Positions 241 to 17,190 of a stretch of 39,583 nt of DNA are shown here, one piece after another. A program made the position numbers and the translations under genes. Below the pieces are notes generated by a model. That model had not been told where the DNA came from, searched no databases, and saw only the letters and a list, made by a program, of their open reading frames with translations. The stretch comes from a virus (taxonomy: Duplodnaviria; Caudoviricetes): the IMG/VR virus record IMGVR_UViG_3300022895_000230, positions 1 to 39,583 of that record; one strand, given 5' to 3'. Position 1 is the stretch's first letter; each line of letters begins with the position of its first letter.

Positions 241-499
241 CGGGTCTCCTTCGCCGCGTCTCGCGGCTGATTGGTGTTCTGATTTCGGTGCGCCGGCAGC
301 TGTACCGGGCGGCTGCCATGACCTTCAGCGCTTCGTCCATGTCGCCGGCGGCGAGGCGGTGGAGGGCCAGGCCCCGGGCCTCCCAGAGGCGGACAGTGGC
401 AGGGCCTTCCTGGGCCAGGTCCACGCCCGACATGCCGGCCAGGTCGTGCGCCGTGCGTTCTACTGCGTTGCCGAAGTCGAGGTGGGTCAGGCTATTCAA
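237..499 (-). pseudogene. Small hypothetical gene, probably frameshifted
   Basis: TTG at 499 opens NSLTHLDFGNAVERTAHDL...; that frame runs through alpA to 56, while another frame gives VQLPAHRNQNTNQPRDAAKETR* ending in an ATGA overlap with the alpA start. Confidence 0.45.
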
Positions 500-1235
500 G
501 GTCTTGGTCCGTGGCAGAATGCGCCGAGATCCACACCCGGAGCATGGAATGAGCTGGTGGAACGCTGTTAGTACGTGCTGGCCGCCGGGCGAGGCCGGGT
601 GTGTTGTGTGGTGGGATGCTTGGGCCGCTCTGGGGACTATAGGCGCCGCCATGGCGGCGGTAACCCTTGGGCTCGCACCGATGCTCGCGCGCCGACACCA
701 CGCCAGGGCGGTCGCCCGCATTGCCAATATCCGACTCGGGATCCAACTTCTCCATCTCGGGGGAAGCTGCGTGTTGGCAAGGAATATCCGGACCGCCAGT
801 GACTACAACGTGGCGCGCATTAATGCTGAGCATTGCGACTCCAAGCCGTTTTCCGAGCTGATCCCATACTTCGATGTCATGCCTACGGCCCTGACCAAGG
901 CCGTCGGATACTGCATCGCTGATATCGAGACCATGCACTCGCTCTTCGCCAAAGTGAGCTTCCGAGCTCCCGGATCGGGCGCACCAAACGCCAGCTTGTC
1001 CGACCTTCTGGACCAAGTGGATGGGACCTTGTGGAAGGCGAGGCGAGCACTGAACGCCTACCTGGGGGAAAAAGAGAAGGACGTGACAAGGGAAATTGCG
1101 GCAATGGGCACCAGTCTGCTGCATCTGGCGCAGGCGGCGGAGGCCACTCCAGGCTGGGATGAGGACTTCGTGCGGATGAAGGTACTTGGCCGCCGCCCAT
1201 GAGGCAGGGTTGAACGCGTCGGACTGGTTAAGCAT
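492..1235 (-). other. Operon-strand bridging ORF 1 (247 aa), antisense to 549-1202
   Basis: ATG overlaps upstream stop (ATGCTTAA) with AGGAG RBS; TAG overlaps downstream TTG start (TTGAATAG); no recognisable protein. Confidence 0.5.
549..1202 (+). CDS. Counter-oriented membrane-anchored accessory protein (217 aa)
   Basis: MSWWNAVSTCW...WDAWAALGTIGAAMAAVTLGL hydrophobic helix then helical soluble domain; opposite to operon. Confidence 0.75.
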   Translation: MSWWNAVSTCWPPGEAGCVVWWDAWAALGTIGAAMAAVTLGLAPMLARRHHARAVARIANIRLGIQLLHLGGSCVLARNIRTASDYNVARINAEHCDSKPFSELIPYFDVMPTALTKAVGYCIADIETMHSLFAKVSFRAPGSGAPNASLSDLLDQVDGTLWKARRALNAYLGEKEKDVTREIAAMGTSLLHLAQAAEATPGWDEDFVRMKVLGRRP

Positions 1236-1677
1236 TCTGGAGCTCCTGCGGCAGCAGCTTCTGCTGCTGGGCGTACTCGATCACCGTCTGGCCGCTCGGC
1301 AGCAGGATGTGGGAGAGGAAGGCGGCCTCGAAGGTCAGCATGCCGATCTCGATCGCGGTCACCTGGGCCTTCACCCAGTCACGCAGGACTGAGTAGACGG
1401 CCACGCCGCTGATCTTCATGGCCTTGGCCTCATGCTCGGCGCGGGTAGCGCGGATGCGCGAGCCGTAGGGATGCTCCCGCAGCCAAGCGGCGGCGTAACC
1501 CCGGGCGCTTGCCTTGAGCTGGACCTGCCGGCCGCGGTGCTCGAACTGGATGAAAAGCTCTCCGGTCCCGTAGTCCTCACCGGTTGCAAACCGCTGGCAG
1601 CCGAACGCCCGCAGCATCTTCTGGATGTCGTTGATCGCGTTGTTGCCGCTGGTGGCGTTCTCGTAGGGAAGGCTCAC
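1228..1677 (-). CDS. Phage hypothetical protein
   Basis: 149 aa, protein-like, start overlaps upstream stop. Confidence 0.8.
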   Translation of the reverse strand: MSLPYENATSGNNAINDIQKMLRAFGCQRFATGEDYGTGELFIQFEHRGRQVQLKASARGYAAAWLREHPYGSRIRATRAEHEAKAMKISGVAVYSVLRDWVKAQVTAIEIGMLTFEAAFLSHILLPSGQTVIEYAQQQKLLPQELQNA

Positions 1678-1952
1678 GGCGACACCTCGGGATTCGCGCG
1701 GCGGTGGGCGTCGATCAGGTCCTGCACCTGGCCTTGCAGTCCTGCGGCCATGTCGCAGAAGTTCGGCACCACGGTGGTGGCCATGACGTGCAGCTGGTTG
1801 CGGATGTCCACCAGATCCACCACGGGGAATGGGGCTTGGCCGGCACGGATGGCTTCCACCACCGCGATCTGCAGCTGCGCGCGGCGTTTCGGCTCGTCGT
1901 CCTGGGTGAAGCGGCGTGCCACGTCGAGGGCGATCTGGTCGATGTCAGCCAA
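1674..1952 (-). CDS. Hypothetical protein
   Basis: 92 aa, overlapping neighbours in operon. Confidence 0.7.
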   Translation of the reverse strand: MADIDQIALDVARRFTQDDEPKRRAQLQIAVVEAIRAGQAPFPVVDLVDIRNQLHVMATTVVPNFCDMAAGLQGQVQDLIDAHRRANPEVSP

Positions 1953-2694
1953 GGAGCACCCCCGTACCCTGCAGCGCGGCGCGCGTTTCTTCCCAGTTGC
2001 CCTCGTGCTTGATGGCCACTCCGCCGGCGTCGGCCCAGGCCGCGCAGTTCTTCCCCCAATCGTCGATCAGGATGTCGCCGGGCTGGTGCATGAAGAGCGG
2101 CTTGTGTCTGCCGCCCAGTACGGGCAGGACCTGGCACGTCTGTGAGAGGTGCTGCCGGACCCATGCACGCTTCTGCGAAGCCACATGCGCGTAGTTCGAC
2201 TTCGGACACGCGGTGAGGATGACCGGCTGGAGGTGCTCCACGGACCGGAAGAAGTCGATCGCGCCAGTCATTGGTGGCAGGTCGCGGAAGAAGGATGCGT
2301 GGCTGTTGATGTGCCCCCACATTTCTTCGTCAGCCAAAGAGCGGTGGTCGAGCCCGAAAACAGCTGGAAACGCGCCGTCGAAGTCGGCCATTACGCCGTC
2401 CAGGTCGATGTAGAGCGTGCGCGCCGGCCTCACCTGCACCTGGCCACCGGGCTTGACGGTCGCCAGCGTCATAGGGCGGAAATGATCCACGGCCGCCCAG
2501 AAGGCACGCGCGGCGTCGTCGACCTGGGTACCTTCGGCCAGCAGCACACTGCCGTCCGGCTGGATCCGGAAGATCTCCTCGCCGGGGCCGAAGATCAGCG
2601 CCGGCGCGGACGTCGACGCTACGCCCTGCAGCCCGGTCCAGGGGAGGTTCGGCGCGTGACTGGAGCTCTTCTCGGGTTGCTGCGTATGGCTCAT
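1945..2694 (-). CDS. HAD-family 5'(3')-deoxyribonucleotidase (NT5C-like) with N-terminal extension
   Basis: YIDLDGVMADF motif I, ILTA motif II, K..ILIDD motifs III/IV; ATG at 2694 in ATGA overlap. Confidence 0.85.
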   Translation of the reverse strand: MSHTQQPEKSSSHAPNLPWTGLQGVASTSAPALIFGPGEEIFRIQPDGSVLLAEGTQVDDAARAFWAAVDHFRPMTLATVKPGGQVQVRPARTLYIDLDGVMADFDGAFPAVFGLDHRSLADEEMWGHINSHASFFRDLPPMTGAIDFFRSVEHLQPVILTACPKSNYAHVASQKRAWVRQHLSQTCQVLPVLGGRHKPLFMHQPGDILIDDWGKNCAAWADAGGVAIKHEGNWEETRAALQGTGVLLG

Positions 2695-2933
2695 CGCTGT
2701 TGCTCCTTCTGCTGCTGGGGCGCGCGTGCGGACTGCAGCGACGCCCAGGTGAGGGGAAACGGGCCGCGCTTGGCCCGGGTGGATGCGGTTTCGACGCTGG
2801 TGCCGATGGCTTCGGCGATCTCGCGGCTGGTGAGCAGCTTCCCTTCGACCACGTGGGCGAAGAGCCGGGCTCGGGCCAGGCCCTCGCGGCGGCGGTGGTG
2901 GCATCGGGGACGCGCTGGCTGGCTGGCCATCAC
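2691..2933 (-). CDS. Small putative HTH protein
   Basis: LTSREIAEAIGTSVETASTR HTH-like segment; coupled both sides. Confidence 0.65.
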   Translation of the reverse strand: MMASQPARPRCHHRRREGLARARLFAHVVEGKLLTSREIAEAIGTSVETASTRAKRGPFPLTWASLQSARAPQQQKEQQR

Positions 2934-3184
2934 GGGCGCCCCTGAGTCAGCGCCGGCGCCTGCTGCGGTGCGCCGACAGCGGTGGCCAGCTTGCCTGTCT
3001 CGTCCATCAGCCGGATCGCGTCCAGCTCGACCTTCACCGCACCGATGTAGGTTGTGGCCACCATCGTCGTGGTCTTGGCGCGCTCGATTACTAGGTTCAT
3101 TTCGTCGGCGCTGAGGTTGTCGTCGCCGAGGCGCTCCAGCATGGCCACCAGGTGGTCGCGGACGTCACTGACCTTGTTCTTCAT
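2930..3184 (-). CDS. Phage hypothetical protein
   Basis: MKNKVSDVRDHLVAMLERL, GGAG RBS, follows HNH-like gene. Confidence 0.8.
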   Translation of the reverse strand: MKNKVSDVRDHLVAMLERLGDDNLSADEMNLVIERAKTTTMVATTYIGAVKVELDAIRLMDETGKLATAVGAPQQAPALTQGRP

Positions 3185-3866
3185 GCTGCTGCTCCTTCGT
3201 GCGTTTGTTGATCCGGCGAGTAATGCGCGCCTTGAGGTAGATGAGTTCTTTCACTTCGGCGGGATAGCGGTTGTGCAGCGTGTTGCGGCGCATGTTCTCG
3301 GCGAGAGTCACTACTTCCAGCCGGTCGGCAGTGATGTCGGCTGCGGCGAAGGTCTTCATGCCCGGCCGGAAAATCACGATGTGGCCTGCCGGTACCTGTC
3401 CCTTGGCTTCCTCCCACACCATCACGTGTACCGGGCGCCAGCGTTGGGCAGGGAATATGGATGGGTCGTCAGTGATCTTTCGCATCAGCACATTCCGCTT
3501 CCGGTCGATCTTTTCCGTCCCGATCGGGACGTAGTTGCGGGATTCGCTCGCGGGACGGCCCTTCTTGAATTGCGTAGTCGCCATGCGCCCGGATGACCAG
3601 CCAGGACGCCGAAGGCCCTTGTTCGGCGGCACCTGCCCGGGCTTGAAGCGCGCCGCGATGGAGGCCGGATCCTCCGTGCCGTTCCACAGCTTGGCCAGCG
3701 GCTGCGTTTCGAAGTCATCGGCCTTCTTGAGGCCAAGCTGGCTGGCACGGCGGTAGACAGACGCGCGGCCCCGTTTCAGCACGTGAGCGATCAGGAACGC
3801 GGGGAAGCGCGGCCAGTTGATCCGCAAGGTCTCGTCCTCGTCAGCAGTCCAAATGCGGCCGTTCAT
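3165..3866 (-). CDS. HNH-like protein with N-terminal HTH-like region
   Basis: WTADEDETL..LGLKK N-terminus, RFKPGQVPPNKG / TQFKKG repeats, HVMVWEEAKG..LEVVTLAENMRRN. Confidence 0.8.
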   Translation of the reverse strand: MNGRIWTADEDETLRINWPRFPAFLIAHVLKRGRASVYRRASQLGLKKADDFETQPLAKLWNGTEDPASIAARFKPGQVPPNKGLRRPGWSSGRMATTQFKKGRPASESRNYVPIGTEKIDRKRNVLMRKITDDPSIFPAQRWRPVHVMVWEEAKGQVPAGHIVIFRPGMKTFAAADITADRLEVVTLAENMRRNTLHNRYPAEVKELIYLKARITRRINKRTKEQQHEEQGQ

Positions 3867-4177
3867 CAGCGCCCTCCGATCAGGGCGGCGCGCAGCGTTT
3901 CGACCCTCGCACGCCAGTAGTCGATGGTTTCGTCACTGCTGCTGCGCAGCGTTTCGTGGTGCCCGAGGCTGGCGGACGCCTCGATCAGCTCGGCCAGCAG
4001 CTGCTCGCGCTCGGTGCTGGTAATGGCCCCTTGGACGCGCAGCTCGGCGAGCTCCGCCTGAAACTGCTCGGTCCGCTCGGCGGCCAGCACCAGCCAGTGG
4101 CGCAGGGCCGCCTTGGTGGGTTGCTTCATCCGGCCCGGGGTAGGGCAGGTGGCCGGGGCCAGCACCAAGGCGCTCAT
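3866..4177 (-). CDS. Hypothetical coiled-coil protein
   Basis: 103 aa, TGATG coupling on both sides. Confidence 0.7.
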   Translation of the reverse strand: MSALVLAPATCPTPGRMKQPTKAALRHWLVLAAERTEQFQAELAELRVQGAITSTEREQLLAELIEASASLGHHETLRSSSDETIDYWRARVETLRAALIGGR

Positions 4178-4314
4178 CAGCGGGCGTCCCGCCGCGCTTC
4201 GGCCAGGATCTCGCGGAGGTCTTCCAGCACCTTGCGGTCCTCGCCTTGGGCGGTGGCTGCGGCCACGGCGCGCTCGAGGGCGTAGGCGCGGTCATTGGGG
4301 TGGATGCAGTTCAT
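4177..4314 (-). CDS. Small hypothetical protein (45 aa, MNCIHPNDRAYALERAVAAA...)
   Basis: Read directly from sequence (below track cutoff); stop coupled TGATG to 4177 start; start in ATGA overlap with bridging ORF 2. Confidence 0.65.
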   Translation of the reverse strand: MNCIHPNDRAYALERAVAAATAQGEDRKVLEDLREILAEARRDAR

Positions 4315-5108
4315 GGCAGAATCGGCTTCAACAGGGAGGGGTTATGGCGCTTGAGTTCTGTCTGCCGGAAGTCGGCACTGGAAGCGTTGCGGATTGGGCG
4401 GCGGTGCTCGTGGCCGCCTGGGCTGCAGCGATCGCCGCGCTTGCTGCGGTGATCGGTATCGCGGGCGCTTCTGCGACGGTTTGGGTTGGGCTTCTCGCTC
4501 ATCGAACGTCCAAGCGGGCGACTGAAATTGCGGACCGTGCGGCGCAGATTGCGCAGCAGCAGCACGGCGAGGCCGTCAAGTTGAGGGAGGAAACGGCGAG
4601 AATCATCGGCCGGCTCCTTCTCGCGGAGGTTGGTTCGGTTCCAGCCAGAGCCGCGCGAATCGTCAGGAACATGCGTCGTGTAGTTGAGCCTGGAGCGGAC
4701 TACTCCACGCTGACCGGTGTTGAAAACTTCGACCGCGCCATGTTTGAGGCGGGGCAGGATCTTCTGCCAACCGCACAGCACGTACTGGACAAGATCCACA
4801 ACCTTCCAGATGCTCTCGGCGCCGACCTGGCTACGTTCATCGCCGCATGTATGTCGCTGAGAACAATGGGGGACAGGGTAGAGGCCAAGGTGGTGAGGAT
4901 CAGCCTTGACACGCTGGCCGGTGAGCAAACAATCATCAAGCTGAAAGATGGTCCCGGCGACTTTTTGATAATGCTCGGGCAGGCACTTTGGATCGTGAGG
5001 CACGGAGCGCTGTTTGCGAACGAGTTCCAAGCGTTTGTCGGAGTCAGCCCCAATGACTACTCGGGGTACATCAGCGAGTTCGAGGGCATGTAGGTCCCGG
5101 GTGCTCAC
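4311..5108 (-). other. Operon-strand bridging ORF 2 (265 aa), antisense to 4344-5093
   Basis: GTG start in GTGA overlap with stop of 5105-5362; TGA in ATGA overlap with start of 4177-4314. Confidence 0.55.
4344..5093 (+). CDS. Counter-oriented membrane-anchored accessory protein (249 aa)
   Basis: GGGAGG RBS; DWAAVLVAAWAAAIAALAAVIGIAGASATVWVGLL hydrophobic segment, then helical domain. Confidence 0.8.
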   Translation: MALEFCLPEVGTGSVADWAAVLVAAWAAAIAALAAVIGIAGASATVWVGLLAHRTSKRATEIADRAAQIAQQQHGEAVKLREETARIIGRLLLAEVGSVPARAARIVRNMRRVVEPGADYSTLTGVENFDRAMFEAGQDLLPTAQHVLDKIHNLPDALGADLATFIAACMSLRTMGDRVEAKVVRISLDTLAGEQTIIKLKDGPGDFLIMLGQALWIVRHGALFANEFQAFVGVSPNDYSGYISEFEGM

Positions 5109-5362
5109 GCCGCGACCCCCAGCGCCCGCAGGTCCAGCTCGTCTACGCGATCGCGCAGCCGATGGCAGGCTGCGCGCAGCGCGAGCGCCACATCGCGGCG
5201 CTTGTCCTGCGGGTAGAAGTCCAGCCCCTCGAAGTGCACGGCGCCGGTAAGGTCGCGGCGGAACAGCCGGTAAGCAATGACGCCGCTGTCACCCATCGGG
5301 TACCGGCCCCAGGAGAAGCCGCCGTTCCGCTTCGGCGCGCGGCGGGGGATAGGCCGGGTCAT
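5105..5362 (-). CDS. Hypothetical protein
   Basis: 85 aa, ATGA coupling, AAGGAG RBS. Confidence 0.75.
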   Translation of the reverse strand: MTRPIPRRAPKRNGGFSWGRYPMGDSGVIAYRLFRRDLTGAVHFEGLDFYPQDKRRDVALALRAACHRLRDRVDELDLRALGVAA

Positions 5363-5574
5363 GCCGCCTGCTCCTTCCCTGCCGACGCGGGCAGTCGACC
5401 CTCGATCACCTGGCGGCGGGTCTTCGCCTTCTTCGGCGGCGTGTTGCCCAGAACCTGGACACGGCCGCCGGCCTTACGGAATGCCGCGATGTCGGCCTCC
5501 AGCTGCTGCTGTTCGTTTTCCTTCTGGCGCCGCGTGGGACTGTCGTAGAAGGGGCGGGCATGGATGTCGGTCAT
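5359..5574 (-). CDS. Small protein with SutA-like RNAP-binding motif
   Basis: QQLEADIAAFRKAGGRVQVL resembles SutA (A..EFL.RGGKVQEI); ATGA coupling. Confidence 0.6.
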   Translation of the reverse strand: MTDIHARPFYDSPTRRQKENEQQQLEADIAAFRKAGGRVQVLGNTPPKKAKTRRQVIEGRLPASAGKEQAA

Positions 5575-5801
5575 GCTGCGATCCTCAGCGGCGCGCGGCT
5601 CACCGGCCCGTGCCACAGGTTGAAGGTGTTGTTGATGCGGACCTGCACCGGATCGATCCGCGCCGGGGCCAGCGGGTTGCGCAGGCGGCGCTCGTCGGTG
5701 GCGCAGGGGACGCAGATGGATTTCGGCCCGCGCTTACCGTCGCTGGCCATCTGGCACAGCGGCAGGCGGCGCTGGCATCCGGTGCAAGTCCGGCGCTCCA
5801 T
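5571..5801 (-). CDS. Small zinc-finger protein (76 aa)
   Basis: CTGC and CVPC pairs; TGATG coupling to exonuclease. Confidence 0.7.
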   Translation of the reverse strand: MERRTCTGCQRRLPLCQMASDGKRGPKSICVPCATDERRLRNPLAPARIDPVQVRINNTFNLWHGPVSRAPLRIAA

Positions 5802-7549
5802 CAGGCAGCCCTCTTCAGCCAGTCGTTGCCGGCCTGCAGCGCAGCAGCGGAAAGGGCATTGCAGATGTCGATGAACTGCGCCTGGTCGTACAGGTTGGCC
5901 GCGCCCTTCTCGGGCAGGGCGTTGAACCCGAGCTTGGCCAGGCCGTCGGCGGAGATCGTCAGGGGCGCGATGCGGGCATTGATGTCGCCCAGCTTCATCT
6001 TGACCACCTCGCGCGGGGCGGTGCTCGCCGGTGCAGCTGCAGGTGAGCGAACCAGTACCGGGGCAGGGCGCGCAGCAGGTGCCGGCGCCGGCTCTTCCAC
6101 CAAGACGGGCGCAGGGGAAGCGGCGGCCGCAGCGGCAGCGTCGCGAGTCTGCTGCTCTTCCAGTGCCTTGCGGGCCTTTTCGGCCTCTTCCTCCCGCATC
6201 TTCACGCGCTCTCGCTCGCGGCGATCTTCCTCGGCCTTCTCGTGATCGCTGATCCGCGCTGCCACCAGGTTGCGCAGGTCTTCCGGCGCCTTGCTGGCGC
6301 ACAGCTGCACGCGGTCGGCGAACAGGGTGGAGTACTCGGGCCGTTCGGCCAGGATCGCCATGTTGGCGCGGATCCGGTCGGCGGCCTGGCTGGCAGTGAT
6401 CTTGGCGTTCGTGGCCACCGTGTCGACCGCGTCCTGCATGCTGGCGAAGGAGCGCTTGCCCTTCATAGCCGCCTGCAGTTCAGCGACCAGCGTGGCCGGC
6501 ATCGGCAGGCCGTGCTCGCCCAGCGTCTCGTTGATGGCTCGGACGTGGTCCTGCACCGCGCGGCGGGCGTTGGTACCAATCTCCGTACGGCGTTCCTCCT
6601 TCCGCTTCGTAACCAGCTTGTCCAGCGCAAGGCGCGTAGCCCGGGCCTGCTCGCTGATGTCGTCGATCGTGCGGAACAGCAGGTCGATGCTCTCGGTCTG
6701 GCTGAGGGCATGCTGCTTGGCGCCGGCCAGTTGGCTCTCGATATCGCTGCACCACTTCACGGTCTTCTCGGCATCGGCGAAGTCCTGGTCGGTGACCAGG
6801 TCCTTGCTGATGCCCTGGAACACAGCGATTGCCTGCTCCTTCCAGTCGGCGAGGTTCGAGGCGGTAACCATGCCGGTCACTTCGATGCGGAGCGCGGGCA
6901 TCTGGTCCGGCGCGCGCCCGGCGGCGACCGGCGCTGTAGGTGCCTCCGGCTCGTAGCCAGCCACGTCGGCCTCCAGCTGGGCCCAGCCGGCGATGATGCG
7001 TGCGCGCAGCTCCGGGTTCGGCGTGTACCAGCAGTGGCGCTCTTCGAGCAGCTCCCACTGGCCCCCGGCGCGCTTCCACTCGGAAGCCATGAAGAACACG
7101 CGCTCGCACCCGGATACCATCGCCTGGTGCTCCATCTGCACCTGATACATAAGCGGCAGGTCGGTACCGGTGCAGCCGTCGAACATGGCATCGCGCAGGG
7201 CTTGGTTGAGGCGCTTGTGCTCCCACGCAGTGTCTTCCAGCAGCGTGAGGCCGTCGAAGCTGGCGGAGTACTTGCCCTGGGCGCCGGTGACCGGATACAA
7301 GTCTTCACCGACGTAGCCCTCGGCGATTACTCGCGCCAAGGCTTCGAACTCATGGCCCGGGTCGATCACGCGCTCCTGCACGAAGTCGCTGAACTCGCGC
7401 GGGACGCCAGCCGCCAGCTCGCGCATCAGGTCGGCGCGGGAGAAGTTGGTGGAGACGCCCAGCATGGCCGGCGCGTCGCTGGCGTTGAGGTGCTGTGCCC
7501 GGTGCTGGTGCCATTCGGGGCTGCCCTGCAACAATTCGACGGTCTTCAT
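5801..7549 (-). CDS. exo: YqaJ/lambda Exo-like exonuclease with long coiled-coil C-terminus
   Basis: QGSPEWHQHR..LNASD, GHEFE, ASFDG, EHK, YQVQMEHQ motifs; adjacent to Bet. Confidence 0.9.
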   Translation of the reverse strand: MKTVELLQGSPEWHQHRAQHLNASDAPAMLGVSTNFSRADLMRELAAGVPREFSDFVQERVIDPGHEFEALARVIAEGYVGEDLYPVTGAQGKYSASFDGLTLLEDTAWEHKRLNQALRDAMFDGCTGTDLPLMYQVQMEHQAMVSGCERVFFMASEWKRAGGQWELLEERHCWYTPNPELRARIIAGWAQLEADVAGYEPEAPTAPVAAGRAPDQMPALRIEVTGMVTASNLADWKEQAIAVFQGISKDLVTDQDFADAEKTVKWCSDIESQLAGAKQHALSQTESIDLLFRTIDDISEQARATRLALDKLVTKRKEERRTEIGTNARRAVQDHVRAINETLGEHGLPMPATLVAELQAAMKGKRSFASMQDAVDTVATNAKITASQAADRIRANMAILAERPEYSTLFADRVQLCASKAPEDLRNLVAARISDHEKAEEDRRERERVKMREEEAEKARKALEEQQTRDAAAAAAASPAPVLVEEPAPAPAARPAPVLVRSPAAAPASTAPREVVKMKLGDINARIAPLTISADGLAKLGFNALPEKGAANLYDQAQFIDICNALSAAALQAGNDWLKRAA

Positions 7550-9062: not shown

Positions 9063-9086
9063 GTTGTGCTCCTGGGCGGAAAGAGG

Positions 9087-9111
9087 TGCCCGTCTTTCCG
9101 GGCTGTCAGCG
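9087..9111 (-). repeat. 25-nt hairpin repeat, copy A (CGCTGACAGCCCGGAAAGACGGGCA)
   Basis: GCCCG-GAAAGA-CGGGC hairpin; paired with copy B. Confidence 0.8.
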
Positions 9112-9144
9112 CTGCGCTACAGGGGAGCGCGCAGGGCAGGGGTA

Positions 9145-9672: not shown

Positions 9673-9710
9673 GGGAACCTCGTAGGTTGGGCCGGCCGCG
9701 CCGGCAGTGG

Positions 9711-9956: not shown

Positions 9957-10081
9957 GAGAACACCGCCTGTGCCATCAGCGTCCCTACGATGCCCAACAC
10001 CAGGCCCACAACCGCGCCGTAGAAGGCGAACTCGCGAGACATGCCGGCGGTTTCTGCGGCGATGATTTCTTCGAACTTCAT
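9953..10081 (-). CDS. Small single-TM protein (42 aa, MKFEEIIAAE...)
   Basis: Read from sequence; GGAGG RBS; coupled at both ends; FAFYGAVVGLVLGIVGTLMA. Confidence 0.65.
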   Translation of the reverse strand: MKFEEIIAAETAGMSREFAFYGAVVGLVLGIVGTLMAQAVFS

Positions 10082-10287
10082 GCCGCCTCCGGACCGGTCG
10101 GGGTGGTGAACTCGTCCCTGAACTGCCGGCGCAGGCGCAGCGCGTTGTTGAGGACGGACAGACCCCGATTACCCTCGCGCTGCTCCGCATTGAGGCGGCG
10201 GAACAACGGGGCGGGGCTCAGCCCGGTGTTGGCGATGGCGTCCCGGACAGCGCGGAACTCGCCGATGTGGCGGACGTTTGTGCTCAT
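10078..10287 (-). CDS. Hypothetical protein
   Basis: AAGGAG RBS, ATGA coupling. Confidence 0.75.
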   Translation of the reverse strand: MSTNVRHIGEFRAVRDAIANTGLSPAPLFRRLNAEQREGNRGLSVLNNALRLRRQFRDEFTTPTGPEAA

Positions 10288-10487
10288 GACAGCTCCTTGG
10301 AGGTCGTGATCTGGATGCGACGCAGGCCGGCCAGCAGCTCGTCGCTGACGGTTTCGTCGTTAGTGGAGAAGCGGCAATCGCCCAGTTCCAACTGCTGCAG
10401 GTAGCGACCGGCATTGGTCATCGGCTCCGGCCGTGCAGAGAGCAGGCCGCCGAAGATCGAAAGGAAGGGGTTGAAGTGCGGGGTCAT
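10284..10487 (-). CDS. Hypothetical protein
   Basis: GGAG RBS, ATGA coupling. Confidence 0.7.
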   Translation of the reverse strand: MTPHFNPFLSIFGGLLSARPEPMTNAGRYLQQLELGDCRFSTNDETVSDELLAGLRRIQITTSKELS

Positions 10488-10906
10488 GCCGCGCGCTCCA
10501 GGTCTGCGTTGCCCAGAAGCAGCTCGCTATCGGCATGCGGGTGCTGCGCCCCGAAGGGGTTGACCAAGGCGCGGACGCGGTCGATCTCTTCCTGCCGGGC
10601 GGCGCGGCGCTTCTGCAGCGTGTCCGTGGTCATGCCAGAGCGGTCGCTGCGCGCATCCCGTCCGGTCGGGACGATGTCGACGGCATCCCCGAGCAGCTGT
10701 AACTGGTGCCGGCGGGCAGCTTCCCAAGCCAGCTCGCAGTTGCCGCTGCTGGCCCAGTGAGCGCCGAGGTACGCAACCTCGCAGCCCGGCATGGTCAGGC
10801 CGTGGCTCAGCAGCTGGGCGGCGAGAATGGATGCGAGTTGGCGCTGGAAGCGGATCTCATCGGCTGGGTGGGCCGAGGGGTGGGATTTGGGGGCGGGCTG
10901 GTCCAT
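10484..10906 (-). CDS. Hypothetical protein, first gene of leftward operon
   Basis: GGAG RBS, downstream of pL-like promoter. Confidence 0.7.
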   Translation of the reverse strand: MDQPAPKSHPSAHPADEIRFQRQLASILAAQLLSHGLTMPGCEVAYLGAHWASSGNCELAWEAARRHQLQLLGDAVDIVPTGRDARSDRSGMTTDTLQKRRAARQEEIDRVRALVNPFGAQHPHADSELLLGNADLERAA

Positions 10907-10956
10907 GACGGTCTCCGTCGCCCTCCCTCGGAGTGAGGTTGCTGGGGCGTTGGCGC

Positions 10957-10998
10957 ATTAAACACCCCGTTTAATCCAGAAGTCAACACCATGTTTAA
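10957..10998 (-). promoter_or_regulatory. pL-like promoter with two 17-bp operators
   Basis: TTGACT-18-TTTAAT on minus strand; operators TTAAAC-acccc-GTTTAA (10958-10974) and GTCAAC-accat-GTTTAA (10982-10998). Confidence 0.8.
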
Positions 10999-11007
10999 AC
11001 ATCAGAG

Positions 11008-11043
11008 AAAAAAAACCCCGAGGCCATGTGGGGCGCTCGGGGC
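11008..11043 (-). terminator. Intrinsic terminator of repressor operon
   Basis: CCCCGAG/CTCGGGG stem followed by an 8-T run on minus strand. Confidence 0.85.
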
Positions 11044-11051
11044 TCGTAGAC

Positions 11052-11531
11052 CTAGAAAGTCGGCTCGATGACCGGTGGTGTCTCCACGGAGGTGTAGGAC
11101 AGCCGGTATCTACGAGTGACGCCCGGATCCACATAGATTTCGGTGGAGCGACGACGAGCCAGGTTGGACTTCGTGACGCCGAGCGCGCAGAGACCGCGAC
11201 CGTCAATGCCCGTCACGGTAAGCAGATGACGTCCTGGACGAAGCTGAAAAGAAACAGACTCGGCTGAGTTGAGATGCGCTGCCATCTGCTCATCGACCAT
11301 GACGCCTAGCGCACACCCACTTCCGACCGCACCGACGTCTCTGGTCACGACTACCGTGCCCGTCTCGGTTCCTTGATCTCGGAGCACAAAAACCTGGTCT
11401 GCCGGTGCGGGACGAACTTGGCTCGCGTCCGGTTGCTTCGTAGGCATGAAGCAACCGGCCAATGCAACGGACAGCACACCGGTGGCCGTCCAACGGGTCG
11501 TCCAGCGCGTCAGGTTGTGAATCATCCCCAT
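11052..11531 (-). CDS. Lipoprotein in repressor operon (candidate superinfection exclusion)
   Basis: Signal peptide with lipobox LAGC; GGAGG RBS; exact start (11531 or 11525) uncertain. Confidence 0.8.
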
Positions 11532-11905
11532 TCCTCCTGTTCCATTCCTACGTCAATCGATCCTCGGACCAGGCCCGCATCATCGAAGGCAATGCCCTCG
11601 ACCCTGCATTCTCGCCCACGTTCCATCTTGAACAGCAAGGCATCGAGCTCGGCGTCGGTCAGGCATTCGACGATGCCGTGCACGTGGGCCGTCTCCTGCC
11701 TCACCAGCCACATCAGCCAGTACATGCGGCCGAGATCTCTGATCCGTGCGTAGAGCACGTCGCGCTGTAGCGCGTTAAGACCTACTGGCTCGGAGCTGTC
11801 GGGCGTGACGACGGTCAACCTTCTCGGCCGCTTCCCTGTCCGTGCCCCCAAAGCCGAGGCAACGGCTGCCGCCATATCCTTCATCTCACGCTCGCTTACC
11901 GACAT
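11522..11905 (-). CDS. Hypothetical protein in repressor operon
   Basis: AGGAGG RBS, directly after repressor. Confidence 0.8.
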
Positions 11906-11908
11906 CGT

Positions 11909-12385
11909 TCATCCTCCTGATCGGAACTTGGCGATGACGTTGCGTCCAGCTGCAGCCAGGTCCTTGTCCCCTTCGATCCCCTGCGCCCAGCGCTCCATGA
12001 CCTCCGCCGTGGCGACGTCGATCAGCCTTTCGCGATCTTCATCGGGGATGGGATCAAGGACCATGTCGTTCACATAGTCGATCAACCTCACCGTGGTGGC
12101 GATGATCGTTCGCTGCAGTCCCGCAGGCTGAGACTGACTAGGGCGCTCCCCGCCCACGTACATCGGCAGCGACCCTTCCAAGATCCAAGTGGCGCTGATC
12201 CCCAAGGACTGCTGAGCTTTCGAGGCACCGGCGGCGCTCACGCCGGTCGCCCGGCTCTCCCAGTTCTTCACGGTCTGCGGGGACTGGCCCAGCGAGCGAG
12301 CCAGCTCTGATTGACCGCGAATAGGTGGGTCAAGCCGTTGGGCAGCTTCGTAGAGCCGCTTCATGGAGGGGTGCATGGATGCCAT
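11909..12385 (-). CDS. CI-like HTH repressor without S24 autocleavage domain
   Basis: QSELARSLGQSPQTVKNWE..LGISATWILEG HTH; divergent from cro; start 12385 or 12376. Confidence 0.85.
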   Translation of the reverse strand: MASMHPSMKRLYEAAQRLDPPIRGQSELARSLGQSPQTVKNWESRATGVSAAGASKAQQSLGISATWILEGSLPMYVGGERPSQSQPAGLQRTIIATTVRLIDYVNDMVLDPIPDEDRERLIDVATAEVMERWAQGIEGDKDLAAAGRNVIAKFRSGG

Positions 12386-12390
12386 GCGCC

Positions 12391-12458
12391 ATTGTCCTGC
12401 GACTAAACAGGGTGTTGTTACACGCGGTGTTGACTGGGTATTAAACATGGCGTGTAAT
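12391..12458. promoter_or_regulatory. pR/pRM-like region with three 17-bp operators
   Basis: Operators 12403-12419, 12418-12434, 12441-12457 match the pL sites; pR TTGACT(12430)-17-TGTAAT(12453); pRM-like -10 GACAAT at 12396-12391 (minus). Confidence 0.8.
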
Positions 12459-12464
12459 GCCGCC

Positions 12465-12692
12465 ATGAACGCCAAACCCCCGATCGAAGTGCACCCCGAC
12501 GCCCAGCTGATCGAACAGCTGGGTGGACCGGCCGTTGTGGCTCGCGCGCTCGGCTTCGAAATGCCTGGCGGAGTCCAGCGGGTCCACAACTGGAAGTCGC
12601 GGGGCATTCCCCCTTTGACCCGGATCACCCGGACCGATGTCTTCGGGCCGATGCCAGCGAACGACGTCGGCCACACCGACGCTGCCGCATGA
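12465..12692 (+). CDS. cro: Cro-like regulator
   Basis: LIEQLGGPAVVARALG....VHNWKSRGIP; first gene after pR. Confidence 0.85.
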   Translation: MNAKPPIEVHPDAQLIEQLGGPAVVARALGFEMPGGVQRVHNWKSRGIPPLTRITRTDVFGPMPANDVGHTDAAA

Positions 12693-12845
12693 ACCCAGGT
12701 TCTGCCCCAGCCCAGCCTGCCCGTGCGTGTGGTGACCGCGGGCATTTGGCTGGGGCGGGGCTCCCGTCTTCCCTGACTTGATCTTCTCCATGGCGCACAT
12801 CCTGCGCCGCCGTCGCCACGACGTCTCCAATCGAGAGCTCCGCCC

Positions 12846-13289
12846 ATGAATGTCACCGATGCCGCCTACGACACCGTCCACCAGTACCGAGGTGGCAGTG
12901 AGGCTCTGGCGCCCAGGATGGGCATGTCCGCCGCGACCCTTCGCGGCAAGGTAAATCCCAACACGGACCGCAACCTGCTCAGCCTTCAAGAGGCGGACAC
13001 GCTGATGGGACGCACCGGCGACTTCCGGATCCTGCACGCCCTCTGCGCAGAGCATGGTTTCGTAGCCCAGCGGGTCGACGCACCTGCGAGCGGCACCCTG
13101 ATCACCGCGCTACTCTCTGCGGCTGCCGCCAAGGGCGACCTCGCTGAGCTGATCTCCGAGGCAATGTCCGATAACCGGATCTCGCCGAACGAGGCAGACG
13201 CCATCTCTCGTGCTTGTGCCCAGGTCATGGCGGCCATCGTGCAGGTGAGCCAGCACGCTGAGGCAGCAGCGGAGCGGGGCGGGGTATGA
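12846..13289 (+). CDS. Phage regulatory CII-family protein
   Basis: GGSEALAPRMGMS...LRGKVNP....LSLQEA pattern; position after cro. Confidence 0.8.
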   Translation: MNVTDAAYDTVHQYRGGSEALAPRMGMSAATLRGKVNPNTDRNLLSLQEADTLMGRTGDFRILHALCAEHGFVAQRVDAPASGTLITALLSAAAAKGDLAELISEAMSDNRISPNEADAISRACAQVMAAIVQVSQHAEAAAERGGV

Positions 13290-13570
13290 GCCCAAGTGCC
13301 TTCCACAAGGCCCCGGTTACGGTCCGCTATCCGCGCGGCCGTGCTACAGGATTGGGGTCCCTTCAACGATGGGGACGACCCATGAATGCACGACCTGACA
13401 CCCTCCGGCAGCTGCAGTGCTGCCTGGACGTCATCGCCCGCAGCGAGCCCATGACCGATGCTGACCGCACCGAGCACCAGTGCCGCTGTGCCGACGAGCA
13501 GGCCAGGGCCGAGGCGCGCCGGGCTGGCCGCACGCCTGACTTGCTGGACAGAGCAACGGGGGCAGCATGA
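13286..13570 (+). CDS. Hypothetical protein (start uncertain, possibly 13382)
   Basis: ATGA coupling on both sides. Confidence 0.6.
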   Translation: MSPSAFHKAPVTVRYPRGRATGLGSLQRWGRPMNARPDTLRQLQCCLDVIARSEPMTDADRTEHQCRCADEQARAEARRAGRTPDLLDRATGAA

Positions 13571-14532
13571 GCACCGACGCGCGGCTCAGCACCGGTCTGC
13601 CGGGCCACCCGAAAACAAAGAAGCTGGTGCGCCGACTTGGGCCTGCCGCTGGCTGGTCGCTGGTGTGCCTGATCTTGTGGGCAAGGTCTAGCCGACCCGA
13701 TGGCGACCTCAGCGGCATGACGGCCGAGGACATTGAACTCGCCGCAGACTGGGCGGGCGACAACGATGCGCTCGTGCGCGAATTGGCGTCCGTCGGGTTC
13801 CTCGATGGCACCGAGGGGGCATACCAGCTGCATGACTGGGCCGACCATCAACCGTGGTCGGCCGGTGCTGAGGCGCGGTCAGAGAAGGCGAAGTGGGCGG
13901 CACTGTGCCGTCGCCACGGCCGGCAGGAAGCGGCGCAGCTCATGCCGGAGTACGCGGCAAAGCTGCTACTGGCACAGCCCGAGCACGACAATCGCCTGCC
14001 AGTAGCAGGGGAAAATCTGCCAGTAGCAGGATCTAGCTCTGCCCCGTCTCCGAATCCGTCTCCGTTTCCGTCTCCGAATCCGTCTCCAAAAGAACAAACC
14101 CCCCATACCCCCCCGGCTGCCGCCGGAGCGGTTCCCCCTGGGAAGGACAATGGCACCAGGGCCAGCAGGACGAAGCGCGACAAAATCAGCTTCCCGGCAT
14201 TCATCGATGCCTGCCGGAATGCGGGGGAGCGTGCGATCCGCAACGATGACCCGATCTTCGACTTCGCCGAGGACGCGGGCATTCCCCGTGAGTTCATCGC
14301 GTTGGCATGGCGCGAGTTCGCCATCCGGCACCGAGACAGCGGCAAGCTGCAAAAGGACTGGCGTGCCCATTTCCGCGACGCGGTTCGCCGGAACTGGTTC
14401 AAGCTCTGGTGGTGTCCGAACGAGGGCGGTTGCGAGCTGACCACCAGCGGCGTGCAGGTGAAGCGGGAGCGGGATGCCGAACGCGAGCGCGAGCGCCATG
14501 AACAGCAGGCGCAGCAGGAGCAGGCCGCATGA
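13567..14532 (+). CDS. Replication initiator (lambda O-like role)
   Basis: HPKTKKLVRRLG..LW..DGDL..HDW.DHQP N-terminus, internal iteron-like repeats, directly upstream of DnaB. Confidence 0.85.
   Translation: MSTDARLSTGLPGHPKTKKLVRRLGPAAGWSLVCLILWARSSRPDGDLSGMTAEDIELAADWAGDNDALVRELASVGFLDGTEGAYQLHDWADHQPWSAGAEARSEKAKWAALCRRHGRQEAAQLMPEYAAKLLLAQPEHDNRLPVAGENLPVAGSSSAPSPNPSPFPSPNPSPKEQTPHTPPAAAGAVPPGKDNGTRASRTKRDKISFPAFIDACRNAGERAIRNDDPIFDFAEDAGIPREFIALAWREFAIRHRDSGKLQKDWRAHFRDAVRRNWFKLWWCPNEGGCELTTSGVQVKRERDAERERERHEQQAQQEQAA
13963..14087 (+). repeat. Probable replication origin: iterons plus 12-bp tandem repeat
   Basis: CTGCCAGTAGCAGG at 13996-14009 and 14017-14030, inverted copy 13963-13974; CCGTCTCCGWWT tandem 14044-14087 encoding PSPNPSPFPSPNPSP. 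Confidence 0.7.
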
Positions 14533-16004
14533 GCGCCGATTTCGATTACGCCGACAGCTTCGCCAACGCGCGCCGGCTCCCGCACTCCGTCGACGCCGAG
14601 CAGGCCGTGCTGGGCGGCCTGATGCTGATGCCGACGGCTTGGCCTGACGTCCAGGACCTGTTGGAGGCGGATCAGTTCTACCGCCGCGATCACCAGCTGA
14701 TCTGGATGGCGATTCAGGCCGTGAAGGAGAAGGGCCGTGAACCGGATCCGGTGACCATGGGCGAGTGGTTCGAATCGCAGGGCAAGCTCGACCTGGTGGG
14801 CGACGGCGCGTACCTCGTCGAGCTGGCCACCACCACGCCGTCGGCAGCCAACATCCGGGCCTATGCGGAGATCGTCCGGAACAAGGCGCTGCTGCGGCAG
14901 CTGGTGGAGACGAGCACCGAGATCGCCGACAGCGCCTACGCCGCCAGCGATGACGAAGCGGAAGAGGTCGTAGCCGCTTCGGCAACGAAGTTGGCCGGCC
15001 TCACCGTGAAGTCCAGCGGCAGCGGCGGCCTGATCTACGTGCGCAGCTCCGCGCAGAAGGCCTGGGACGAGATGGAGGCCCGGTTCCATGGTGACGGCAC
15101 GCTCGGCCTGGCACCGAAGTGGAGCAGCGTGCGGCGCAAAATTCCCGGTCTGGAGCCAACGGACCTGATCGTGCTGGCAGCACGCCCCTCGATGGGGAAG
15201 ACGGCGCATGCCCTGAACTGGGCTGCGGACGCTGCCGAGGGTGGCCGCAACGTGGCTGCCTTCAGCCTGGAGATGTCCGCCGCGCAGTGGAGCATGCGCC
15301 TGATGGCGGCACATGCCGGCGTGGACCTGAGTCGCATGCGCGAGAAAGGCGCTCTGACCGATGACGAGTGGGCGCGGCTGTCCAATGCACGGAACTACCT
15401 CCAAACCCTGCCGCTGGCGATCGACGACTGCGGTTCGTTGTCGGTCGACGCGCTGTCGGCCCGCGCCGCGCGCATGCACGCCAAGGTGCCCGGCGGCCTG
15501 GGCCTGATCGTGGTGGACTACCTGCAGCTGCTGTCGGGTAAGGCCAAGTCGGAGAACCGAACGGCGGAGGTGTCCTACATCTCGCGCCAGCTGAAGCGAC
15601 TGGCCAAGGACCTTAACTGCCCGGTGATGGCGTTGTCGCAGCTCAACCGCGGGCTGGAAGCCAGGACGGATAAGCGGCCTGGCATGGCCGACCTGCGCGA
15701 GTCCGGTGCCATCGAGCAGGACGCCGACGTGATCATGTTCCTGTACCGCGACGACTACTACTCGAAGGATGCCTGCGGTGCGCCGGGGATCTCGGAGCTG
15801 ATTGTGGCGAAGAACCGTCAGGGGCAGACCGGCACCTGCTACCTGAGGCACGAGCTGGAATGCAGCAGCTTCCACGACTACACCGGCCCGAAGCCGAACT
15901 ACAGCCTAAAAGGGGCGGCGGCCAACAGCGATGACGACGATTTCGGTGATCCGCTGCCGCGTAGGCGAAGCCGGAAGGATCGCGCCGCAGGAGACGACGC
16001 ATGA
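14529..16004 (+). CDS. dnaB: Replicative DNA helicase
   Basis: AEQAVLGGL, AARPSMGKT, FSLEM, VVDYLQL, LSQLNR, DLRESGAIEQDAD. Confidence 0.97.
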   Translation: MSADFDYADSFANARRLPHSVDAEQAVLGGLMLMPTAWPDVQDLLEADQFYRRDHQLIWMAIQAVKEKGREPDPVTMGEWFESQGKLDLVGDGAYLVELATTTPSAANIRAYAEIVRNKALLRQLVETSTEIADSAYAASDDEAEEVVAASATKLAGLTVKSSGSGGLIYVRSSAQKAWDEMEARFHGDGTLGLAPKWSSVRRKIPGLEPTDLIVLAARPSMGKTAHALNWAADAAEGGRNVAAFSLEMSAAQWSMRLMAAHAGVDLSRMREKGALTDDEWARLSNARNYLQTLPLAIDDCGSLSVDALSARAARMHAKVPGGLGLIVVDYLQLLSGKAKSENRTAEVSYISRQLKRLAKDLNCPVMALSQLNRGLEARTDKRPGMADLRESGAIEQDADVIMFLYRDDYYSKDACGAPGISELIVAKNRQGQTGTCYLRHELECSSFHDYTGPKPNYSLKGAAANSDDDDFGDPLPRRRSRKDRAAGDDA

Positions 16005-16540
16005 CCCTCACCGCTGCAGCGAAGAAGATCCGGGCGAAGCGCGCCCGGCGCCCGATCTACCTGACGGTCAAGAAGCTGGTCGACCCGGACACGGGCGAGA
16101 TGGTCGGCGCGCTGGTGCCGGCGCACGACGTCGACGCGCGCCTGCTGCGCGAGCGGAAGTACCACACGGGGCGCGAGGTCCGCGCGGAGCTGAAGCAGCC
16201 TCGGGAGGGCTGGCAGCACCGGCTGATCCATAAGATCGGTCACCTGGTGGTGGACAACGTAGAGGGGTGGGAGCAGCTGGACGCGCACGACGCGGTGAAA
16301 CGCCTGCAGCGCGAGTCCGGCGTCTGCTGCGAGGAGATCGAGATCGATGTGCCGGGCGTCGGCCGGCTGATGGTCAAGCAGGCCGAGAGCCTGTCGTTCG
16401 ACGAAATGGAGCAGGACCGGTTCCAGGTGCTGTTCGACGGCATCACCCAGCACATCGGCAACCGCTACGCGCATGTCCTGCTGGACGACGTGCGCGCGGA
16501 GTTCTGGCAGATGGCGGGGCACAACAGGAGGGCGGCCTAA
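16001..16540 (+). CDS. DUF1367/NinB-like protein
   Basis: SLSFDEMEQDRF motif; nin-region position. Confidence 0.65.
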   Translation: MTLTAAAKKIRAKRARRPIYLTVKKLVDPDTGEMVGALVPAHDVDARLLRERKYHTGREVRAELKQPREGWQHRLIHKIGHLVVDNVEGWEQLDAHDAVKRLQRESGVCCEEIEIDVPGVGRLMVKQAESLSFDEMEQDRFQVLFDGITQHIGNRYAHVLLDDVRAEFWQMAGHNRRAA

Positions 16541-17190
16541 TGTCTCAACTACCTCCGAGGTTTTGGTGGGCGGGTGCTATGTGGGAACAGTGCTTCGATC
16601 TTGGCTTGCGAATCTGCAATGCCGAGGAGCGCGTCCCACATCAGATCGTAGAACCTCGCTTTATCGGTGATGACGAACGTGGAAAAAGGAGTCAAGTCAC
16701 CATAATCGTCCAGCCGCGGTATGTCTTCGACGGCGAGCAGTTCTTTCGCAGAAAGGACATTAAAAACTGCACGCTGCAGTCCGTTGGACGCATTCCCCAG
16801 GTCATGCAATTCATCGATTCTCGCGGATATCTCTTCTGGGATCACCAGCGCTGCCCTGGTGATCTTCCCAGCTATGCACACGTTATCGCGCACGTCCTCA
16901 ACATCGTCATCGGGATGTTCGTGGTCCCAAATCTCGTTATTGCGATCCCCGAAGGTTCGAATGTATGGGAGCAAAAGCAAGCCGAGGCTGCGCGCCCTGT
17001 CCGCGCGTTCAGATGCCCTGACGTTCGCGGCGAGAAGATGTTGCACGGCCGGTATAGCCACTGCCATCAATATCGCCACAATGCTGCCGACAGCCTGCAC
17101 CCATGCGGCCTGAACCTCAGGTCTCATTTCGCACCAGCCGATCCAGCCGCAATCCATGCTCTTCCCCTTGGTAAATGGAGGCAAGCATGA
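16540..17190 (+). other. Operon-strand bridging ORF 3 (216 aa), antisense to 16549-17157
   Basis: TAATG overlap with AGGAGG RBS at start; ATGA overlap with Ref-like start at end. Confidence 0.55.
16549..17157 (-). CDS. Counter-oriented membrane-anchored accessory protein (202 aa)
   Basis: AAGGGG RBS; AAWVQAVGSIVAILMAVAIP hydrophobic helix; visibly lower GC than flanks. Confidence 0.8.
   Translation of the reverse strand: MDCGWIGWCEMRPEVQAAWVQAVGSIVAILMAVAIPAVQHLLAANVRASERADRARSLGLLLLPYIRTFGDRNNEIWDHEHPDDDVEDVRDNVCIAGKITRAALVIPEEISARIDELHDLGNASNGLQRAVFNVLSAKELLAVEDIPRLDDYGDLTPFSTFVITDKARFYDLMWDALLGIADSQAKIEALFPHSTRPPKPRR

Follow-up and report, generated by a model that had tools for sequence, protein, structure and literature searches.

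The virus record IMGVR_UViG_3300022895_000230 (Duplodnaviria; Caudoviricetes) of IMG/VR carries three genes which point against the early operons in which they lie. The analysed stretch of 39,583 nucleotides (nt), here called the window, is the entire record. We refer to the three genes as cassettes A, B and C. Opposite each of them the operon strand holds one long open reading frame (ORF) without stops, codon-aligned with the cassette, here called bridge A, B or C. A sequence-only reading of the window had listed these three antisense genes and three operon-strand frames; the ORF listing and the translations confirm them (Table 1). Operon-strand genes adjoin each cassette on both sides, in the window and in most homologous loci. 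We propose, with a probability of about 0.68, that a bridge is a frame kept stop-free by selection and joined stop-to-start to its neighbours, and that it serves as a translated spacer which carries ribosomes across the insert.

The six junctions, read on the operon strand, are as the sequence-only reading had claimed, with a stop/start overlap at each (6/6). Bridge A starts in ATGCTTAA, its ATG 5 nt before the TAA of the gene at 1228-1677 and with an AGGAG 5' of it (CAGGAGCTCCAGAATGCTTAA); its stop in TTGAATAG overlaps an inferred TTG start (CTTGAATAG). Bridge B begins in a GTGA overlap with the gene at 5105-5362 (GCGGCGTGA) and ends in an ATGA overlap with the gene at 4177-4314 (GCCATGAAC). 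Bridge C begins in a TAATG overlap with the stop of NinB at 16001-16540, preceded by AGGAGG (CAGGAGGGCGGCCTAATG), and ends in an ATGA overlap with the nuclease gene start at 17187 (AGCATGAGG). In the ORF listing this + frame is open across 16267..17190, and the ATG at 16540 is in frame. At the convergent ends 2-11 nt separate the cassette stop from the stop of the upstream operon gene. The divergent start codons are about 30 nt apart.

Judged by their alignments the cassettes are real genes, each belonging to a conserved family of predicted single-pass membrane proteins. All three translations start with a hydrophobic N-terminal helix. The 28 database relatives of cassette B conserve its motifs in the alignment at identities down to 37%. 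Cassette C has relatives at 64 viral loci and at 79 loci in bacterial genomes. The homologues of all three proteins come from sources which include Stenotrophomonas and Xanthomonas. Strand preference was assessed with a codon model trained on the clear genes of this phage, and the membrane-protein strand is favored by 35 (A), 13 (B) and 2.5 (C) nats. Both strands of the cassettes score poorly in this model because the codon usage of the cassettes is atypical. Their guanine-plus-cytosine (GC) content at third codon positions (GC3) is 0.63-0.72, compared with about 0.8-0.9 elsewhere in the window. Across very diverged relatives the cassettes hold a low and nearly flat GC3 (0.47-0.74) in phages of about 65% GC. 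Pairwise BLASTP among the three cassette proteins gave no significant match; their kinship is read solely from N-terminal motifs shared in their homologues.

Relatives of the cassettes were collected from viral contigs (29 loci for A, 25 for B, 64 for C). The count comprises 116 genes; a 9-codon stub (L101) and a gene cut by a contig end (L084) were left out. The codon-aligned antisense frame is stop-free in 100 of these 116 genes, i.e., in 27/28 of the A, 22/25 of the B and 51/63 of the C family. The remaining two antisense frames of the homologous cassettes contain 1-16 stops each. At 50% identity the 116 genes fall into 73 clusters, of which 59 are open throughout, 4 contain open as well as interrupted genes and 10 contain no open gene. 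The openness persists despite a cassette GC3 of only 0.47-0.74.

Which of the two frames is under selection? Compared strand by strand, as had been suggested earlier, the divergence points to purifying selection on the membrane-protein frame only, with an amino-acid sequence of the bridge that drifts freely. Divergence at sense third positions is 3-8 times that at the first and second. In two B-family examples the divergence at sense positions 1/2/3 is 0.099/0.040/0.336 and 0.171/0.133/0.529. In the bridge, the first codon position is the fastest-evolving site class. Pairs of sense and bridge identities are 0.90/0.65, 0.77/0.42 and 0.54/0.27.

These data bear directly on the possibility that the bridges are true antisense overlapping genes with a lytic function of their own, e.g., as a disordered protein or as a neutralizer of the cassette protein. 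The frames are long (216-265 codons), their start codons have Shine-Dalgarno-like sequences, and their openness is kept in 100/116 homologues. There is also a phage precedent in olg1/gene 10 of phage Fc02, both with a phenotype according to the excerpted report (PMC9936078; this and the other articles cited are drawn on in excerpt). Yet we consider such a function improbable. A pair of functional proteins should display purifying selection on both frames; by the substitution pattern it is found on one. The first codon position of the bridges evolves fastest, and bridge identity has dropped to 65% when sense identity is still 90%, and to about 27% when it is 54%. Further, bridges over unrelated cassette C-termini at one and the same site have no common sequence. 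Searches of Pfam and PHROG gave no significant match for any of the three bridge products. The lack of family matches together with the rapid decay of bridge identity indicates, therefore, that the cassettes are the genes and that the bridge products are not conserved proteins.

The junctions were counted in the relatives for stop-free cassettes only, with neighbours predicted by the codon model. The nearest bridge-frame start overlaps the stop of the upstream gene in 71/78 loci. The offsets are -1 (ATGA/GTGA/TTGA) in 47, -5 (ATGnnTGA) in 12, +2 (TAATG/TGATG) in 9 and -8 in 3 of them. The bridge stop overlaps the start of the downstream gene in 80/85 loci, as ATGA (-3) in 42, ATGnnTGA (-7) in 25, TGATG (0) in 9 and as an 11-nt overlap (-10) in 4. 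The -5/-7 geometry of bridge A recurs in 12 and 21 A-family loci, respectively. In the window and in the relatives, then, stops and starts overlap or abut as they do in coupled gene pairs. Among stop-carrying cassettes with a predicted upstream gene the overlap is kept in only 1/6.

A different view of the same junctions is obtained when the insertion sites are followed through related phages. At site C we examined 68 loci with relatives of the nuclease gene which lies downstream of cassette C. In 64 of the 68 an operon-strand ORF ends on the nuclease start codon (60 by ATGA/GTGA, 4 by TGATG); of the remainder, two have the ORF end 14 nt upstream and in two no such ORF was found. The site is empty in 16/68: here an ordinary gene lies upstream (sense model best, GC3 0.74-0.86) and is coupled directly by ATGA/TGATG. 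Antisense cassettes of at least 165 amino acids (aa) occupy 41/68 and fall into 30 clusters at 50% identity; in every case a bridge ends on the same ATG. Nine of the 68 loci are ambiguous. At site B we examined 13 relatives of the 85-aa gene which precedes cassette B in the operon, and in 13/13 this gene and the ORF after it are joined by a GTGA or ATGA overlap. Six of the 13 are followed by antisense cassettes with A-like or B-like N-termini, each of them bridged, and 5/6 end in ATTCTGCCATGA. A co-oriented ordinary gene takes this position in the other 7/13.

The sequence-only reading had expected empty sites to be direct start/stop overlaps and diverse cassettes to keep an open coupled frame. 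Both expectations are borne out, the former at site C (16/68) and site B (7/13), the latter by 41 cassettes in 30 clusters at site C and by 6 at site B. The coupling is kept whatever occupies the site. The cassettes are, therefore, best viewed as exchangeable modules at fixed operon junctions; by the comparison of loci they are fast-diverging genes at fixed sites between conserved early genes. As a separate observation, in nine nuclease loci (L123, L133, L136, L137, L150-L152, L155 and L163) the frame ending on the nuclease start runs on without a stop for 276-488 codons. There it reaches far past the cassette and into the preceding gene, which it overlaps out of frame.

The site comparisons also enter into the judgment of a second alternative, according to which the frame is open mainly for regulation of the cassette. 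Ribosomes would shield the antisense transcript from Rho and ribonucleases, and convergent transcription and an RNA duplex would switch the cassette off in the lytic phase. The sequence evidence for this is the same as for the translated spacer. In addition, mutual antisense repression is reported for noncontiguous operons (PMC11034616), and a membrane protein acting in exclusion or abortive infection could conceivably hurt the lytic growth of the phage itself. Nevertheless, regulation of the cassette fails to account for the overlap of bridge stop and next start in 80/85 loci, and for the same direct coupling at empty sites. We regard it as unlikely.

Evidence for selection on openness itself comes from codon usage. 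TTA, CTA and TCA are the codons which create stops in the aligned antisense frame, and cassette A has none of them. In the pooled B family Leu usage is otherwise nearly flat (CTT 29%, CTC 23%, CTG 24%, TTG 23%), and rare codons are used freely (GTA 12%, ATA 13%, AGA 12%, GCA 21%). CTA accounts for 6/634 and TTA for 2/634 Leu codons, and TCA for 1/343 Ser codons. The expectation for TTA, CTA and TCA was derived from how often codons end in A in families that have the second base in common with them (GTN, GTR, G/C/A-CN). Observed versus expected numbers are 1 vs 160 in the A, 9 vs 138 in the B and 48 vs 278 in the C family, in total 58 vs 576. In 813 flanking control genes from the same loci the same calculation gave ratios of observed to expected of 0.62-1.02 across all GC3 bins. 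Against this calibrated null the avoidance of the three codons, a test already suggested by the sequence-only reading, amounts to a depletion of about 10-fold or more.

The controls tell the same for openness. The aligned frame is open in 1/32 control genes at GC3 0.5-0.6 and in 23/113 at 0.6-0.7; for high-GC3 controls (0.8-0.9) the figure is 153/302. At the composition of the cassettes 24/145 controls are open versus 100/116 cassettes (Fisher 2e-31). For the three window genes a codon model matched for context predicts 3.5, 3.9 and 3.8 codons which would give an antisense stop, and the probability that all three frames are open is about 2e-4 when scaled by the control ratio. The codon usage of the sense gene does not explain the open bridge frames. 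What we observe is an ambigrammatic sequence, i.e., a codon-aligned reverse frame which is stop-free beyond codon usage and conserved as such in relatives.

Could TTA, CTA and TCA be avoided for the sake of the cassette's own translation or regulation, the overlapping junctions being a matter of genome compaction? These codons are indeed rare in GC-rich bacteria and make up 0.26% of the codons in the ordinary genes of the window. But other rare codons (ATA 13%, AGA 12%, GTA 12%) are freely used in the very same genes, same-locus controls of equal GC3 are not depleted, and same-family homologues in genomes of similar GC have 3-6 of the codons in question. Moreover, compaction alone would not place both junctions in the single open frame. 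Such an explanation is very hard to uphold. Chance shadow ORFs of GC-rich DNA, of which the sequence-only reading had warned and which do occur in half of the high-GC3 controls and opposite 20244-20750, are practically out of the question given the low GC3 of the cassettes, their openness and codon depletion relative to controls of like composition, the small probability for the window alone, and the junction and context data. The two examples attached to that warning, opposite 20244-20750 and opposite dnaB, proved to be ordinary shadows. Opposite the real gene 20244-20750, which matches phrog_31488 at 1.6e-71, lies an ORF of 286 codons (19899-20759, -) for which family searches gave no match.

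The bacterial relatives of cassette C permit us to ask on what openness depends. A scan of bacterial genomes with the C-family alignment returned 79 loci, of which 74 were analysable. The aligned frame is stop-free in 16/74. The open loci are mostly from Stenotrophomonas, Xanthomonas and Luteimonas and include two Janthinobacterium prophages with ATGA overlaps at both bridge ends. Fifteen Acinetobacter loci have 7-15 stops in the aligned frame, and several genomes of 60-68% GC have 3-6. We then considered all loci of at least 58% GC and classified as tight those flanked by two operon-strand neighbours, with a convergent-end gap of at most 30 nt. With tight embedding 64 loci are open and 2 have stops; in other contexts the numbers are 43 and 32 (Fisher 7.5e-9). 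The bacterial-genome set alone gives 7/1 versus 6/20 (p 0.002), the viral set alone 57/1 versus 37/12 (p 5e-4). By this comparison openness follows tight antisense embedding, not protein family or GC. Neighbour orientation had also been called by a heuristic of GC1 versus GC3, which was dropped for the codon-model calls since it misclassified loci known to be embedded. By that same crude heuristic the Acinetobacter homologues seem to sit between opposite-strand genes with spacers of about 50-200 nt, and their antisense frame is not open.

A mechanism can be outlined on this basis. There are bacteria in which Rho terminates untranslated RNA (PMC12548453). After induction the transcript of the early operon would run antisense through the cassette, for 600-750 nt, to reach the next gene. 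Left untranslated, this stretch would be a target for Rho, and translational coupling would be lost across it. Ribosomes which terminate at the upstream stop would reinitiate on the bridge, and the bridge stop would pass them on to the next operon gene. The aligned frame would be the cheapest antisense frame to maintain, because it is the only one whose stops can all be cleared by synonymous changes of the sense gene. Co-transcription of the flanking genes is suggested by the gaps of 2-11 nt and about 30 nt and by the lack of terminators. The benefit of a bridge could be anti-polarity, reinitiation or protection of messenger RNA.

The cassettes themselves would be expressed in the lysogen from a promoter of their own, and converging operon transcription would shut them down upon induction. 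Beyond its own stop the cassette transcript would be an untranslated antisense RNA which Rho could end without an intrinsic terminator. Ribosomes crossing the insert would fit with cassettes that are flanked by neither terminators nor promoters. No intrinsic terminator-like site exists within 1-5700 on either strand, where shuffled sequences yield 3.7 on average, and a scan for consensus promoters found none upstream of cassettes A or B. The motif TGGCAGAAT, which occurs just twice in the 39.6-kb window, upstream of these two cassettes, is a candidate extended -10 promoter element. It is present at the matching distance in 18-21/28 A-family, 19/25 B-family and 0/63 C-family loci. Read on the opposite strand, it includes the bridge stop and the codon at which the downstream operon gene starts.

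With respect to the function of the cassettes, Pfam, PHROGs, PADLOC, a protein atlas and Foldseek against the PDB returned nothing. The AlphaFold model of cassette B (predicted local distance difference test score 88.3) has a very long helix, residues 15-111, followed by a helical and beta-hairpin domain; Foldseek found no PDB match for it at E 0.001 or better. The backward orientation in early operons, the conserved N-terminal anchor with variable C-terminal domains and the many variants per site suggest that the cassettes encode exclusion or defence proteins of the lysogen. The N-terminal anchor motif (AAWVQAVGS and variants) is also the mark of a very broad superfamily whose members have unrelated C-terminal domains and occur in prophage-like regions of many Proteobacteria.

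Several points weigh against a ribosome-carrying spacer. The RNA runs that hold the phage consist of short, unstranded metatranscriptome contigs only. Many downstream genes have a Shine-Dalgarno-like sequence of their own, e.g., AGGAAAGCATGA, and coupling may therefore be dispensable for their initiation. In the comparison of tight and other contexts the neighbours were called by a home-made codon model which small genes escape, and some loci in the other class are probably mis-assigned. The low GC3 of the cassettes is left unexplained. Finally, 16/116 homologues have stops in the frame, 14 of them mid-gene; a bridge is, therefore, common and not obligatory. In the other two, L019 and L064, the stops are confined to the first 26 cassette codons and the bridge still spans most of the cassette. 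Two of the mid-gene cases are from loci of about 48% GC and have 10-11 stops each. The contrary outcome considered in the sequence-only reading, homologues with stops or without junction overlaps, thus is limited to a minority, mainly where the gene is not tightly embedded. All sequence-level tests which that reading had put forward turned out in favor of its interpretation.

On balance we favor, with somewhat less assurance than for the bridges of this phage, a general device of temperate phages in bacteria with coupled transcription and translation. In such a "translational bridge" a long ORF selected only for its translatability, placed in the codon-aligned antisense frame of a backward accessory gene and joined stop-to-start to the operon, would nest lysogeny genes in lytic operons without promoters, terminators or polarity.

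How does this relate to known systems? A classical moron is an accessory gene between conserved phage genes, with its own promoter and terminator in the flanking spacers. Like morons the cassettes are present or absent between conserved neighbours and have an atypical composition (GC3 0.63-0.72 versus about 0.8-0.9). Unlike morons they leave no room for a promoter and a terminator, the flanking non-coding spacers being too short, and there is no terminator-like site within 1-5700. In translation-dependent protection from Rho, translation of an upstream ORF, not its product, sustains downstream transcription. Those systems involve short leader ORFs or ordinary genes, in contrast to frames of 200-300 codons antisense over another gene.

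Noncontiguous operons, or excludons, described for the men operon of S. aureus and for four cases in prophage 80alpha, likewise contain a gene of opposite orientation which the transcript crosses, and antagonistic expression of the strands is expected (PMC11034616). According to the excerpts of that article transcription must persist over the untranslated antisense stretch. This is explained by uncoupled "runaway" transcription in Gram-positive bacteria and named as an unsolved problem for coupled transcription-translation. The difference is that the stretch is described as untranslated there, whereas here, in phages of Proteobacteria, it is covered by a coupled ORF kept by selection, and co-transcription is presumed. 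Ambigrammatic narnaviruses share with the bridges a codon-aligned reverse frame freed of stops by synonymous choices, the only reverse frame for which this can be done (PMC6884476). In excerpt, their reverse product is not conserved and translation itself is proposed to matter (PMC6884476, PMC8316113). They are, however, RNA viruses of eukaryotes with a reverse ORF over the whole genome and no operon. The bridges cover single DNA cassettes, are joined stop-to-start and lie on the operon strand, opposite the conserved gene. Antisense overlapping genes, i.e., olg1/olg2 versus gene 10 of Pseudomonas phage Fc02 and cases in P. aeruginosa and E. coli, also place long ORFs opposite each other at a single locus. 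In Fc02 the lysogen expresses one of the strands and an early lytic operon the other (PMC9936078). Two functional proteins are argued for there; here the second frame appears to be free of amino-acid constraint.

Full-text literature searches, with most subscription journals outside their coverage, did not find, for operons of phages or bacteria, a coupled bridge frame which selection maintains over an antisense gene. In a 2025 review of translational coupling the words "antisense" and "opposite" do not occur. Papers with both "ambigrammatic" and "phage" concerned, among the matches listed, RNA viruses or bacterial overlapping genes. The view of the sequence-only reading that the architecture is undescribed holds within the searchable literature; antisense genes in operons and codon-aligned reverse frames are known separately.

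If true, translational bridges would answer the question raised by noncontiguous operons, i.e., how the transcript of an operon can persist over a long antisense stretch which is not translated, in bacteria where Rho polices untranslated RNA. They would be the DNA-phage counterpart of the ambigrammatic RNA viruses. They would be a clean example of selection on translatability alone across hundreds of codons, which is relevant to the question whether long antisense ORFs of GC-rich bacteria have a function. There are consequences for annotation, since at such loci a gene caller can pick the bridge ORF, which is longer and coupled, and miss the real gene. Bridges would make up a class comprising hundreds of "junk" ORFs which gene callers mis-annotate as proteins or discard. 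Conversely, purged TTA/CTA/TCA codons together with the double stop/start overlaps would be a signature for lysogeny-expressed accessory genes in prophages, likely of defence or exclusion. The prediction is directly testable by mutations which are silent on one strand and nonsense on the other.

The genome as a whole, about 65% GC, is indicated by family searches of the window proteins to be that of a temperate siphovirus of the lambdoid type. Its features are compiled in Table 1. The tRNA genes are followed by lysis, packaging, head and tail genes. In a Megablast comparison with phage records no close relative turned up, the matches being restricted to DnaB and tRNA fragments.

Table 1. Features of the window (aa, amino acids; E, expectation value; nt, nucleotides)
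Feature	Position	Strand	Remarks
Cassette A	549..1202	+	217 aa; N-terminal transmembrane helix; motif CVVWWDAWAA; 17 database homologues
Cassette B	4344..5093	+	249-aa membrane protein; motifs TSKRA..IA.QQH.EA and IHNLP..LGADLAT
Cassette C	16549..17157	-	202-aa membrane protein; motif AAWVQAVGS; 16 database homologues
Bridge A	492..1235	-	247 codons, stop-free; codon-aligned with cassette A
Bridge B	4311..5108	-	265 codons, stop-free
Bridge C	16540..17190	+	216 codons, stop-free
Operon gene upstream of bridge A	1228..1677	-	phrog_17260, function not annotated
Coding stretch downstream of bridge A	242..499	-	Start is inferred TTG at 499; end tentative; high third-position GC
Operon gene upstream of bridge B	5105..5362	-	85 aa
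Small operon gene downstream of bridge B	4177..4314	-	45 aa, MNCIHPND...; start inside conserved ATTCTGCCATGA
NinB/Orf-like gene upstream of bridge C	16001..16540	+	phrog_319, E 7e-27
RecA-dependent nuclease gene downstream of bridge C	17187..17570 (start 17175/17187)	+	PF16786, E 1e-16
TGGCAGAAT motif	512..520	+	37 nt upstream of cassette A start
TGGCAGAAT motif	4314..4322	+	30 nt upstream of cassette B start
AlpA-like gene	1-240	-	
Left early operon	~11,900 down to 1	-	RecE-like, RecT-like, HNH endonuclease, nucleotidase and AlpA-like genes
Repressor/Cro/CII region	~11,900-13,300		
Right early operon		+	Replication initiator, DnaB (14529-16004), NinB, RecA-dependent nuclease, resolvase
tRNA-Trp (CCA)	19358-19433	+	Between right early operon and lysis genes
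tRNA-Met (CAT)	19527-19603	+	Between right early operon and lysis genes

The product of the coding stretch downstream of bridge A has no match in family searches. The frame which begins at its TTG maintains a high GC3 for about 85 codons. It stays open down to 56 and so shares about 185 nt with the AlpA-like gene, which is read in a different frame. Two gaps in the composition of the late operon, 30270-30749 and 37041-37475, were considered as further cassettes and rejected; they are ordinary co-oriented genes.

Four soil metatranscriptome runs hold short, identical and scattered contigs of the phage which include cassettes A and B. They carry no information on strand or level, might represent carried-over DNA and are given no weight here, nor is the lack of cover at 16201-16800. 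In two RNA-library runs contigs fuse position 15529/15530 to 15688/15689 and thereby omit 157-159 nt within the DnaB gene; these contigs may stem from the helicase gene of a relative or of a host.

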